Source: Candidatus Harrisonbacteria bacterium
GTDB lineage: Bacteria > Patescibacteriota > Minisyncoccia > UBA6257 > 1-14-0-10-44-23
Length of the DNA: 64,000 nt
NCBI GenBank assembly: GCA_023255625.1
Contig: JAHFLF010000001.1
Span: 290,965-354,964, forward strand
Direction: 5' to 3'
Shown here piece by piece: positions 20,347 through 46,377 of this stretch. Within the stretch, counting starts at the first letter, position 1. Each line of letters starts with the position of its first letter. The notes under the pieces are model-generated. The model had not been told where the DNA came from and ran no database searches. It saw only the letters and a program-made list of their open reading frames with translations. Made by a program: the position numbers and the translations under genes.

Positions 20347-20613
20347 ATGATCGGATATGTTTACATATTGCGAGCTGCCGATGACCGCTTGTATGTCGGC
20401 AGCACCAGCAATTTAGAATATCGTATGCGCCAACACATAGCTGGTCATACGCAAACAACTCGCAATATGAAAAAATTTGCGCTTGTTTTTAAGCAAGAGA
20501 CGGCTAATTTGAAAATAGCCCGTGCTGCTGAACGAAAGCTCAAAAAACTAAAACGCAAGGATTACCTAGAAAAAATCATCAAAGACGGCTATATTAAGAT
20601 ATTACCCCCATAG
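20347..20613 (+). CDS. GIY-YIG nuclease superfamily protein (YhbQ/UPF0213-like)
   Basis: GYVYILRAADDRLYVGSTSNLEYRMRQH carries the GIY...YIG motif. The 3' end overlaps tRNA-Arg. Confidence 0.65.
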   Translation: MIGYVYILRAADDRLYVGSTSNLEYRMRQHIAGHTQTTRNMKKFALVFKQETANLKIARAAERKLKKLKRKDYLEKIIKDGYIKILPP

Positions 20614-20674
20614 TTCAATGGATAGAACAAAACTCTTCTAAGGTTTTGATGTAGGTTCGATTCCTACTGGGGGT
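20604..20674 (+). tRNA. tRNA-Arg (anticodon TCT)
   Basis: ACCCCCA acceptor, anticodon loop CTTCTAA, T-arm GTAGG-TTCGATT-CCTAC. Confidence 0.7.
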
Positions 20675-20694
20675 ACAAAATGATAAGATTGGGT

Positions 20695-20758
20695 AGTTCA
20701 ACTCCGACGCTCACAGTAGTGAGGTCGGAGCCCCGACCTACTGCGTCTGGGTGGATAA
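20695..20758. repeat. about 64-bp direct repeat, copy 2
   Basis: See 20272-20335. Confidence 0.8.
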
Positions 20759-20808
20759 GACAAGGGGTTTCTAACCCCTCAATCTAGGTTCGATTCCTAG
20801 CGGGGACA
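20757..20808 (+). other. tRNA-like 3' fragment (anticodon-arm-like AGGGG-TTTCTAA-CCCCT, T-arm CTAGG-TTCGATT-CCTAG, CGGGGAC-A-CCA) with no adjacent 5' half
   Basis: Canonical T-loop and encoded CCA. The only candidate 5' acceptor strand (GTCCTCG) lies at 20274-20280, immediately before repeat copy 1. Confidence 0.4.
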
Positions 20809-20868
20809 CCATGGATAGTTAATCGGTTAGTCAGTTAGTTGGTTAGTTGGTAAAACGAAAAACTAATT

Positions 20869-26932: not shown

Positions 26933-27275
26933 GACAATAAATGATTGGAATAAGTGAGAAGCGCAGATTTTGATGCAGTTCTAGGCGCGGGAGGGCGGTT
27001 TGTGAGCCGTACTTTTATATAAGTACGGTGAGCAAACCGACGGGACCCGCAACAACGAACTGCTCAAAATATGCATTTCTCACACACAATAACTCTGTAG
27101 TTGCCCCAAATTACGATTCCGGTTCTTGCGATTCCTCCGAAGGAGGATCCGCCTATGGCGGAAAAGTGTCGTGACTTAGAGCTCCACGACCAACACTCTT
27201 TTTCTATCAATCCAGTATATAAATATACTGAAGTGTCGCTTTTTCCTAATCTCCATTTACAGAGAAAGAAAAAAG

Positions 27276-29180
<1,905 letters not shown>

Positions 29181-29630
29181 TAATAAGTAATTTGAAATTC
29201 ATCTAGCCGAAGCCAGATGAATAACAAACACTCTTGTTTTGGGACAACTACACAATTATTGTTGCATACTTTATATCTGCTTGAAGGATATAAAGATTTT
29301 GATTTCCTAATCATTCATTTATCTTTATAGTTTTTAGTATCTTTCGATACAAACATTTTCAAAGAACGAAAGGTATACTCAATTCACTTTTTGAAGTGAA
29401 AATAATACACCCGTCTCGGCGACCTATCGTATGATCTGCAATACGACGACGAGACGGATGCGCTGGTCTGATATATGTTTTTCCGCCAGAGGCGGATCCG
29501 CCTTCGGCGGACAATTTGTACGAATTTCGCGGGATGTTTCGCTGGTTCGTTTGTACTGCCTTAAGCCAGTACTAATGTGGCTTCTAGTATAGTCGACCGA
29601 ATAATAAAGTCAAGACCTTATTAACGAAGC

Positions 29631-45028: not shown

Positions 45029-45317
45029 AATGGGAAAGGGATAATTAAAATAATAAAATTTTCGATGAAGAAAAAATATGCACTGGAAATCATCAGGAAT
45101 TTTTTCGTTCCTCAATTCTACTCCCCGTTCTCAAGACCTGGCAAGAGTGGATAACTCAAAAATGTTCAAGCTAAAAAAGATTTTTAACAAGTGTCAACGA
45201 CGCCAACCTAAAAATCGCTTCACAAACCAAAAAATCAGCTCCGCGGGGCTGATTTTTTGGGCCTTTTTCTTAGTTTCGACCAATTAACCAACTAACCAAC
45301 TAACTGATGAACTAATT

Positions 45318-45675
45318 CTGGTGCCGCGGGTCAGAATCGAACTGACAACCACTTCCTCTTCCAAGGATATTCTCTGCATTACTGCAAAGTTTGGACTATA
45401 TCATCTCCCCAGAGGGGAGTCGGGCGCTATCTGCGAGGTTATTGTTGGGACTCACTCGCTAGTCTCTACACCTGCCTCCGCTAAAGCTACTGCAGGCAAG
45501 CCTTCTTCAACGATTTGGCTTGCTTGCAATCCGTAGCCTCCCGGCGAAGGATTGGCTCGGGATTTTCCTCTCACAAGGAGTTCCCCCGAATTCACCCAAT
45601 TATTCAATCCATATTACTATGGAAGGCCCCAAAGAGTTATCAATAGGGAAATGCTCTACCATTGAGCTACCGCGG
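45318..45675 (-). tRNA. tRNA-Phe (anticodon GAA) interrupted by a 283-nt group I intron between U33 and G34 (exons 45644-45675 and 45318-45360)
   Basis: Exon 1 GCCGCGGTAGCTCAATGGTAGAGCATTTCCCT. Exon 2 GAAGAGGAAGTGGTTGTCAGTTCGATTCTGACCCGCGGCACCA. Intron carries group I R-like (TAGAGACTAG) and S-like (GATATAGTCC) elements, a GGGG internal guide, and ends in G. Confidence 0.7.
45361..45643 (-). mobile_element. group I intron within the tRNA-Phe anticodon loop, with no homing-endonuclease ORF
   Basis: See the tRNA-Phe entry. The 5' exon ends in U and the 3' exon follows a G. Confidence 0.6.
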
Positions 45676-46377
45676 CAGCGGCGCGAACTGCTTCAAACCC
45701 TCAATCCACCCCATAATTTTATAGAACAGTTGAGTATTGTTGATTCTAATTTGAATGACCCCAAAAGGCAAGCGATTAAAGGGTCTTTTACCTTTGCTAG
45801 ATAAACTTACGAAAATATGCACTTTGCCAAAACGACTCTTGGGAATCTTAGTAATCTTTGACCAATAACTAATTGCTTCATCTTCTTGAATATGTTTAAA
45901 GATTCTTAAATCTGCAGTGATCTTTTCTTCTGGTACATTGCAAATCTCGCGGATAAATCTTAGAAACATCTGCACCAACAACGGATCAGAATTTGTAAGA
46001 CTTATTGAGTGTGCTGTTATTTCACGACCCTTAACTTTTCTCACTCTTTTATAACCTTCCGCCCAGTAAAGCGCGATTCCGACAATAAACAAATTTTCTC
46101 TTGATACCTCACGAATCTCAGATTGAGCCAATTCCAAAATATCATCTCTCCGCTTAATGGCTAGGGCTGTCTGCTCCTTATTTCTTTTTATAAAACCAGC
46201 AAGGGATTTTTCGCGGCTCCGGACTGCAATTTTTTTCCGGGCCTCATCAGAAAGGGGAACTTCTTTCAACCATAAAGAAAGGGTTGATTTAGAAATCCCT
46301 AGCAACAGTTTTTGAATCTGACCATAACTCAGACCTTCTAACCTCAACTGAATCGCACGATTTTTATCTTTCCTCAT
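45667..46377 (-). CDS. hypothetical HTH-domain protein (236 aa) immediately upstream of, and slightly overlapping, tRNA-Phe
   Basis: N-terminal GLSYGQIQKLLGISKSTLSLWLKE HTH. Basic. Function unknown. Confidence 0.45.
   Translation of the reverse strand: MRKDKNRAIQLRLEGLSYGQIQKLLLGISKSTLSLWLKEVPLSDEARKKIAVRSREKSLAGFIKRNKEQTALAIKRRDDILELAQSEIREVSRENLFIVGIALYWAEGYKRVRKVKGREITAHSISLTNSDPLLVQMFLRFIREICNVPEEKITADLRIFKHIQEDEAISYWSKITKIPKSRFGKVHIFVSLSSKGKRPFNRLPFGVIQIRINNTQLFYKIMGWIEGLKQFAPLPR

Follow-up and report, generated by a model that had tools for sequence, protein, structure and literature searches.

A group I intron very probably splits a tRNA-Phe gene of a patescibacterium, beside a gene that may encode a homing endonuclease targeting tRNA genes

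What interrupts the tRNA-Phe(GAA) gene of a Candidatus Harrisonbacteria bacterium, how could a functional tRNA be made from it, and what is the protein gene that runs into its 5' end? These questions were raised by one locus in a stretch of 64,000 nucleotides (nt) of contig JAHFLF010000001.1 (assembly GCA_023255625.1, positions 290,965 to 354,964 of the forward strand), hereafter the window, whose own numbering is used throughout. Sequencing run SRR14366769 has a contig identical to it. The analysis gives a confident answer to the first two: a group I intron of 283 nt, without an open reading frame (ORF), very probably sits between U33 and G34 of the gene and is spliced out by the group I pathway. 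The answer to the third is more tentative and concerns a protein family whose members are repeatedly found next to tRNA genes.

The split gene was delimited by ARAGORN, run with its intron option, at 45319-45676 on the minus strand, that is, 358 nt including the intron. An earlier note, made from the letters of the window, had given 45318-45675, which is one base low at both ends. The default ARAGORN run on the window did not report the gene, and the label "tRNA-Asn(att)" returned with the intron option was rejected since it has the span and the 283-nt intron right and the insertion site misplaced. Exon-intron boundaries were set by the rule that the exon ends in U and the intron in G, by anticodon-stem pairing and by the homologs described below. 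The 5' exon (GCCGCGGTAGCTCAATGGTAGAGCATTTCCCT) holds the acceptor strand and D arm, the first strand of the anticodon stem, and C32 and U33; it covers tRNA positions 1-33 with 32 nt because the D loop is short. The 3' exon, read on the minus strand from 45361 to 45319, is GAAGAGGAAGTGGTTGTCAGTTCGATTCTGACCCGCGGCACCA, in which GAA is followed by G37, A38 and the second strand of the anticodon stem; then come a variable loop of 5 nt, the T arm, the acceptor strand, A73 and CCA. Once joined, the exons were called by ARAGORN as a canonical tRNA-Phe(gaa) of 75 nt with the loop CUGAAGA and A73. This is the tRNA that the earlier note had assembled from the two exons, and its 283-nt intervening sequence also stood (45644-45362 on the minus strand). 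Default tRNA finders overlook essential tRNA genes in genomes of the Candidate Phyla Radiation (CPR), and the window gene, missed by ARAGORN in default mode, is another illustration.

The Rfam model RF00028 (Intron_gpI) matched 45372-45644 on the minus strand with 60.9 bits, against a gathering score of 50. The match spans model positions 1-253 of 253 and has E = 5.6e-13 for the whole window, far above chance. Matches to Oskar_OES, YrlA and Atu_Ti4 near the locus lay far below their thresholds and were discarded as chance. The minimum free energy of the intron is -98.8 kcal/mol (z = -3.3 versus shuffles), and the corresponding fold gives P2, P3, P4, P5, an extended P6, P8 and P9. P7 results from pairing between the R (UAGAGACUAG) and S (GAUAUAGUCC) elements, P1 and P10 come from the guide, and all core helices are intact. 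Within the guide, GGGG (45630-45627) makes P1 with the exon end CCCU, the pair at the splice site being a U33.G wobble; CUCUUU makes P10 with GAAGAG, the first six bases of the 3' exon. The P1 and P10 strands are contiguous, as the group I mechanism requires. Only mechanical ORFs of 43-94 amino acids overlap the intron. The earlier note had proposed a group I intron at 33/34 from R-like and S-like elements, a GGGG guide, a 5' exon ending in U, an intron ending in G and the lack of an ORF. Each of these was found (the R and S elements at 45468-45459 and 45402-45393), and two of the checks that it had suggested, an Infernal-type search with the Rfam model and folding, respectively scored above the gathering threshold and yielded a buildable group I structure.

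Splicing would begin with pairing of the guide 5'-CUCUUUGGGG-3' with the 5' exon end (N30)CCU33 and with intron base +1, giving P1 and its U33.G wobble, upon which a free guanosine bound in P7 would attack after U33. The CUCUU(U) of the guide would then pair with GAAGAG at the start of the 3' exon (P10) as the terminal G of the intron (45362) moves into the G site. Finally, attack by the 3'-OH of U33 would join CCCU to GAAGAG and produce the anticodon loop CUGAAGA within a canonical tRNA-Phe. We infer that the window intron does splice, and that it does so free of protein.

Comparative evidence for this structure was obtained from 33 split tRNA-Phe genes from GTDB loci, which were aligned together with the window gene and one published sequence by MAFFT, blind to structure. 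The intron structure scored was the one drawn on the window sequence, and controls consisted of partners slid by 1-3 columns and 500 shuffles. Every one of the 35 sequences has CCU at the end of its 5' exon, a final G in the intron and GAAGAG as the first bases of the 3' exon. Standard pairs occupied 91.3% of 1891 intron pair cells, compared with 33-51% for the slid partners; changes on both sides were observed in 32 of 60 intron pairs, and none of the 500 shuffles matched any of five measures. P1 was 100% paired with U.G at the splice site throughout (35/35), and two of its pairs covaried, N30 with the guide as GC (18) or CG (17) and intron base +1 with the guide mostly as GC (20) or AU (14). 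Pairing was found in 93.9% of the P10 cells (CUCUU with AAGAG), 98.1% of those of P6 and 98.3% of those of the nearly invariant P7, and five covarying pairs were present in each of P5 and P8. Likewise, the cloverleaf read across the intron was paired in 99.6% of 735 cells, with 11 compensated pairs, including four of the five anticodon-stem pairs that face each other across the intron. The covariation of the intron and the compensated cloverleaf therefore indicate selection both on the ribozyme fold and on the spliced tRNA.

Rfam was not used to count homologs because a homologous intron plainly present in one locus (L002; L numbers designate loci) was not reported at the gathering threshold. 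A DNA-pattern scan of metagenomes with an exon-guide-P3/P4 signature yielded at least 120 loci; among the matches listed, at least 95 are additional tRNA-Phe(GAA) genes split by an intron, whose length ranges from 199 to 306 nt. The class is thus much commoner than the frequency of one in 95 complete genomes at which it was first reported. That report is a survey of 95 complete Patescibacteria genomes (Nakagawa et al., mSystems 2026, January; PMC13011429), in which a group I intron at 33/34 of tRNA-Phe(GAA) was described from Doudnabacteria GCA_016699995.1 (Table 1 and supplement). The two introns share phylum, tRNA, anticodon, insertion site, the junction CCU|GAAGAG, the R and S elements and the P7.1 hairpin, and are 77% identical over 203 aligned positions. 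Their guides follow the same logic, that of Doudnabacteria (UCUUCGGGC) pairing with GCCU and GAAGAG. They differ in length (283 nt in the window versus 211 nt) and in the presence, in the window intron, of a P6 extension of about 69 nt, of P9 and of a 5-nt insertion in the P1 loop. In the same survey, group I introns at 35/36 of the Patescibacteria genes for tRNA-Asn and for tRNA-Asp were shown to self-splice in vitro. The core of the tRNA-Asn intron is about 71% identical to that of the window intron. Both introns are short and lack an ORF, and they hardly differ in the segment GAGACUAG-(P7.1)-AGAUAGCGCCC, whose hairpin those authors likewise name P7.1 (PMC13011429). On the other hand, host tRNA and insertion site differ (35/36 versus 33/34), and so does the guide sequence as a consequence; some tRNA-Asn introns also have an internal HNH endonuclease gene, and the window intron has none. 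The published tRNA-Phe intron adds to the Rfam score, the guide and the covariation in favour of the identification made by the earlier note. The novelty implied by its interest rating was too high: the window intron is a further example of a class published in 2026, not a new one, and is of modest interest alone.

The sequence of the P6 extension (CCUUCGCCGGGAGGCUACGGAUUGCAAGC...GCUUUAGCGGAGG, about 69 nt) is conserved in the introns of the window and of L016, L019 and L039, which have otherwise diverged, and this conservation suggests a structured peripheral domain. The P7.1 hairpin lies between the P7 5' strand and P3', which we take to be the position at which IA introns carry their extra P7.1, and also P7.2. 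With respect to bacterial tRNA introns in general, the window intron shares a location in the anticodon loop and a short P1 and P10 with the cyanobacterial tRNA-fMet intron, also inserted at 33/34, and with the IC3 tRNA introns, such as those of cyanobacterial tRNA-Leu and Azoarcus tRNA-Ile. Those tRNA-fMet introns that bear an endonuclease encode it inside the intron, and it is of the PD-(D/E)XK type. Subgroup IC comprises 81% of bacterial tRNA introns (with IC3 Ile2 introns listed in Table 5 of the survey), but no Patescibacteria tRNA intron was assigned to it, nearly all of them being reported as IA (PMC13011429).

A few observations weigh against this account of the intron. The P1 loop of the window intron is enlarged by an insertion of 5 nt, which none of the other 34 aligned sequences shares and which could slow the first splicing step. 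Pairing of P7.1 and P9 in the alignment was lower than elsewhere (69-83%), in part because two types of P7.1, one of them a two-hairpin version found in other family members, and optional P9 hairpins are mixed in it. The putative placement of the window intron in the P7.1-bearing, IA-like lineage typical of Patescibacteria tRNA introns is based on the P7.1 hairpin and homology.

The neighbouring gene is a more useful lead than the intron. Its ORF overlaps the first 10 nt of the tRNA (45667-45676), its TAG stop coincides with tRNA positions 8-10, and the intron insertion site is 23 nt downstream of this stop. In the earlier note this gene appeared as an HTH (helix-turn-helix) protein gene at 45667-46377 overlapping the 5' exon. 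The overlap, of 10 nt, and the HTH were retained; its standing as an incidental neighbour was not, given a likely LAGLIDADG-like domain and a statistical link to the intron. The same 10-nt overlap occurs in L031 and L045. If the ORF and the tRNA were co-transcribed, the RNase P cut at the tRNA 5' end would strip the mRNA of its stop codon.

Sequence-family searches of the flanking ORF returned models of the N-terminal HTH only. The AlphaFold2 model (predicted local distance difference test score 88.9) shows a C-terminal domain in the order helix, short strands, strand-helix-strand-helix-strand-strand-helix, which has an extra helix between strands in comparison with the alpha-beta-beta-alpha-beta-beta-alpha LAGLIDADG fold. 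The best structural matches to this domain are I-DmoI, I-Tsp061I, I-ShaI and WhiA, and a LAGLIDADG-like fold is likely. I-ShaI is a single-domain enzyme of a CPR rRNA intron, and single-domain LAGLIDADG enzymes are typical of CPR; WhiA has a LAGLIDADG-like fold and is not a nuclease. The flanking ORF differs from the LAGLIDADG endonucleases in lying outside introns, in its added N-terminal HTH and long helix, and in matching no LAGLIDADG Pfam model. None of 54 relatives departs from E107, G108 or K110, so that an acidic residue followed by glycine stands at the C-terminal end of the motif helix in all of them. By hhalign, ALYWAEGYK falls on GLYVAEGDK of I-DmoI, and these residues on E117, G118 and K120, in a weak profile alignment (E = 0.043). 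Nuclease activity is possible. The family of the C-terminal domain comprises 3,146 cluster representatives at E <= 0.001, and no relative scanned had a Pfam model for it. Some relatives of 420-576 amino acids (P0196, P0226, P0246, P0252, P0267) have two copies of the C-terminal domain and resemble the two-domain monomeric LAGLIDADG enzymes.

Linkage between this family and tRNA genes was analyzed in two samples. The first was centred on the ORF and consisted of 80 loci in GTDB species genomes (L004-L083), reached through relatives of the flanking protein. Where the sequence permits a call, a tRNA gene was found next to the ORF relative in all but 4-5 of them, and in about half of the 80 the protein gene adjoins a tRNA-Phe gene split in the same way. 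In the usual layout, the tRNA is on the same strand and starts from 21 nt inside the ORF end to 48 nt after it. The neighbours in this layout were 36 intron-bearing tRNA-Phe genes (one of them, in L030, with a gap of 155 nt), 12 intact tRNA-Phe, 20 tRNA-Gly(GCC), 3 tRNA-Pro (Pro-UGG) and 1 tRNA-Val (Val-UAC). Ten loci were left unresolved by the layout check: L026, L036 and L037 have an intron-bearing tRNA-Phe upstream or divergent, L012 and L061 an intact tRNA-Phe otherwise arranged, three run off the contig end, and no neighbouring tRNA was found in L032 and L049. In 58 of 66 cases an ORF and its nearest relative had neighbouring tRNAs of one kind, where chance would give 36%. ORF lineages track tRNA type.

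The second sample was blind to the ORF and consisted of the intron-bearing loci of the DNA-pattern scan (at least 120), in which both strands and both sides were searched for relatives; its counts hold among the matches listed. Where 900 nt or more were available on each side (47 loci), 28 loci (about 60%) had a relative within 1.5 kb; where this length was required upstream only, the figure was 51 of 82. Counting upstream same-strand ORFs alone gave 23 of 87 loci, an underestimate. Three layouts recurred: the relative was on the same strand and either upstream (32 loci) or downstream (19), or it was upstream and divergent (13), with typical gaps of 3-57 nt for upstream and 49-138 nt for downstream ORFs, near enough for co-conversion with the intron.

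The ORF family occurs patchily: a pattern-limited scan of 185,579 species genomes gave 266 loci. One contig of 81,832 nt (L024 and L141) has the ORF beside tRNA-Gly(GCC) and an intron-bearing tRNA-Phe without an adjacent ORF. L025 and L119, the best presence/absence pair, have in common an upstream gene and a split tRNA-Phe (flank identity 75%), with the ORF in L025 only. No exactly syntenic empty site was found for the window locus, L199 having a ribonucleotide reductase gene in a different orientation, and no target-site duplications were found around the ORF in the window or in seven CPR loci. Distant relatives with 31-42% identity are located within tRNA arrays on IMG/VR viral contigs (L204, L205, L206, L208). 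In L204 the ORF lies between 30-nt direct repeats (642-671 and 1354-1383) that are 87% identical and correspond to the 3' end of tRNA-Glu, and the repeat has compensated T-stem changes.

These patterns suggest that the flanking gene may encode a homing endonuclease of LAGLIDADG type, free-standing and directed at tRNA genes, which could carry the intron along by co-conversion. Such a reading fits because of the patchy occurrence, the lineages that track tRNA type, the variable position and orientation, the presence in phages and the invariant residue at the catalytic-acid position. Collaborative homing of this kind, by an intron and a nearby free-standing endonuclease, is known from phages, in which the enzyme was shown to cut at the intron insertion site (PMC3984707). 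The window locus is alike in that only a few dozen bases separate the ORF-less intron from a candidate gene for a free-standing endonuclease, and in that intron and ORF co-occur far above what the rarity of either would lead one to expect. It is different in that the target is a cellular tRNA gene and not a phage protein gene, and the candidate is a putative LAGLIDADG-like enzyme with an N-terminal HTH. SegB of phage T4 is a free-standing homing endonuclease in a tRNA cluster that promotes inheritance of the tRNA region (PMC2330249). Distant relatives of the window ORF are likewise found within phage tRNA arrays, whereas SegB belongs to the GIY-YIG enzymes, has neither sequence nor fold in common with the window protein and is associated with no intron.

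We propose, tentatively and as one possibility, that the "ORF-less" tRNA-Phe intron travels with an unrecognised family of free-standing HTH and single-LAGLIDADG-like endonucleases homing to tRNA genes, so that the two form a collaborative-homing pair at tRNA-Phe in a cellular genome. It is equally tentative that this reading holds together with its full extent, a family of at least 3,146 cluster representatives with tRNA-Phe, Gly, Pro and Val genes in CPR and phage tRNA arrays as targets. The flanking gene is mentioned neither in the survey, including its account of the Doudnabacteria intron, nor in the other literature searched; in the survey, endonuclease genes were sought within introns only, and the tRNA introns of these bacteria were concluded to be largely immobile for lack of such genes (PMC13011429), which the reading proposed here would contradict. 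If the flanking gene encodes an active homing enzyme, it would explain the spread and persistence of ORF-less introns in very small genomes, and would provide a cellular example of collaborative homing and a compact family of tRNA-gene-specific nucleases to study.

Several points weaken the case for homing. Many relatives adjoin uninterrupted tRNA genes, and the tRNA-Phe genes among these have the CUGAAGA loop of the spliced product (in L055 and L076 the stem is also nearly identical to that of the spliced window tRNA). Self-protection in those lineages therefore does not, in general, depend on the intron, which argues against a simple form of collaborative homing, with an enzyme that cuts intron-less alleles near the insertion site and an intron that protects its own allele. 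Vertical inheritance could explain part of the association between ORF and intron. No sequence match to a LAGLIDADG family (LAGLIDADG_1, _2, _3 or the WhiA type) was obtained in Pfam, NCBIfam or PDB: the window protein, 54 relatives, three phage-contig relatives and 10 distant relatives had HTH models only and no LAGLIDADG Pfam model, and neither a profile search against PDB sequences nor a Foldseek search against PDB returned a match for the flanking ORF. Moreover, WhiA demonstrates that a LAGLIDADG-like fold can be a plain DNA binder. The flanking ORF could be a DNA-binding regulator that, as WhiA does, reuses the fold and that controls the tRNA gene, with shared ancestry accounting for the intron link. 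We regard this as possible, if somewhat doubtful. The catalytic acid, glycine and lysine have been lost in WhiA, but E107 (aligned with the catalytic acid), G108 and K110 are invariant in 54 sequences of the present family. A regulator would also have to be reconciled with the patchiness of the 266 loci, three positions or orientations around the same tRNA, a syntenic allele that lacks the ORF (L119 versus L025), and the relatives located within tRNA arrays of phages, among them one that has a duplicated tRNA 3' end on its two sides.

A different role for the same protein would leave the intron genuine and make its splicing in vivo protein-dependent. Some fungal mitochondrial LAGLIDADG proteins act as maturases, and the 10-nt overlap with the tRNA, the presence of a relative at 28 of 47 independent intron loci among the matches listed and the unusual 5-nt insertion in P1 of the window intron would all suit a maturase. 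Nevertheless, among those same matches about 40% of the intron-bearing tRNA-Phe loci with sequence on both sides are without the ORF, and ORF relatives adjoin uninterrupted tRNA-Gly, -Pro, -Val and -Phe genes. With so many introns lacking the ORF and so many ORFs lacking an intron, a maturase role is unlikely, and the chance that splicing of the window intron depends on one appears slim. In addition, no protein is required in vitro for the self-splicing of related tRNA introns of Patescibacteria that have the same core (PMC13011429). That the gene is a decaying pseudogene whose intron no longer splices while another tRNA-Phe gene serves the cell is scarcely credible: only 64 kb of the genome is visible and a second copy could lie elsewhere, but every core helix is intact, the compensatory changes that maintain pairing in homologs (91% in the intron, 99.6% in the cloverleaf) require selection on the spliced RNA, and complete Patescibacteria genomes have a single tRNA-Phe gene, so that an interrupted copy must work and a dead one is very unlikely.

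Table 1. Features of the split tRNA-Phe locus in window coordinates
Feature	Position	Strand	Description
Whole split gene	45319..45676	-	both exons and the intron between them; CCA is encoded; ARAGORN, sequence
5' exon, tRNA positions 1-33	45645..45676	-	32 nt, GCCGCGGTAGCTCAATGGTAGAGCATTTCCCT; end ...UUUCCCU, last base U33
Group I intron without ORF	45362..45644	-	283 nt; starts AUUGAU; terminal G (omega-G) is 45362
Internal guide sequence	45627..45636	-	5'-CUCUUUGGGG-3'; intron positions 9-18; read from sequence
P2 hairpin	45608..45623	-	UCCAUA-GUAA-UAUGGA; fold; 6/6 pairs compensated, 96.7% of cells paired
P3 5' strand	45593..45599	-	UUGGGUG; pairs with 45420-45426; 99.6% of cells paired, 3 pairs covary
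P4-P5	45557..45589	-	P4 UCGGGG/UCCCGA, 99% paired; P5 UCCUU-GUGA-GAGGA, 5/5 pairs covary
P6 with long P6a/P6b extension	45470..45556	-	P6 GCC/GGU; about 69 extra nt; Rfam match, fold
R element	45459..45468	-	UAGAGACUAG (R-like TAGAGACTAG); holds P7 5' strand GACUA, 45460-45464
P7.1 hairpin	45433..45459	-	GCGAG-UGAGUCCCAACAAUAACC-CUCGC; 27 nt, between P7 5' strand and P3'; stem pairs covary
P3 3' strand	45420..45426	-	CGCCCGA; fold and homolog alignment
P8 hairpin	45405..45419	-	CUCCCC-UCU-GGGGAG; fold; 5/6 pairs covary
S element	45393..45402	-	GAUAUAGUCC (S-like GATATAGTCC); holds P7 3' strand UAGUC, 45394-45398
P9 hairpin	45372..45389	-	CUUUGCA-GUAA-UGCAGAG; Rfam match, fold; only some homologs have P9
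3' exon, tRNA positions 34-76	45319..45361	-	43 nt, GAAGAGGAAG...CCGCGGCACCA; anticodon GAA first, CCA last
Flanking ORF, 236 amino acids	45667..46377	-	N-terminal HTH, long helix, C-terminal LAGLIDADG-like domain (likely), motif LYWAEGYK
Palindromic hairpin, 15 pairs	45227..45260		A run before and T run after; about 60 nt past tRNA 3' end, before ribonucleotide reductase gene

The limits of the transcription unit were also considered. No consensus promoter was found upstream of the flanking ORF, and two weak matches were located inside its 3' end; the tRNA may be co-transcribed with the ORF or have a promoter of its own. Downstream, the palindromic hairpin was found as a consensus match in a scan that listed the plus strand only. 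Being palindromic, it could also stop the minus-strand tRNA transcript (reverse complement CCAAAAAATCAGCCCCGCGGAGCUGAUUUUUUGG, minus-strand RNA CCAAAAAAUCAGCCCCGCGGAGCUGAUUUUUUGG), and from its sequence it is likely to be the terminator of the ORF/tRNA unit. Between it and the tRNA 3' end there is a short repeat at 45283-45310 on the plus strand, AACCAACT twice and then AACTGATGAACTAATT.

Elsewhere in the window, the 16S rRNA gene (27274-29184, minus strand) is 1911 nt long, compared with 1533 positions in the model, and the part of the alignment shown has unaligned insertions of about 39, 140 and 115 nt; no group I match was obtained inside this gene. Such large insertions fit a CPR bacterium, and the named relatives of the local proteins all come from CPR lineages. 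A second tRNA-Arg(TCT) on the plus strand (20745-20811) is aberrant, being 67 nt long and situated 70 nt after the normal copy (20604-20676). No convincing acceptor stem could be drawn for it; ARAGORN places its anticodon at position 26, and it scored 32.8 bits in Rfam against a threshold of 29.

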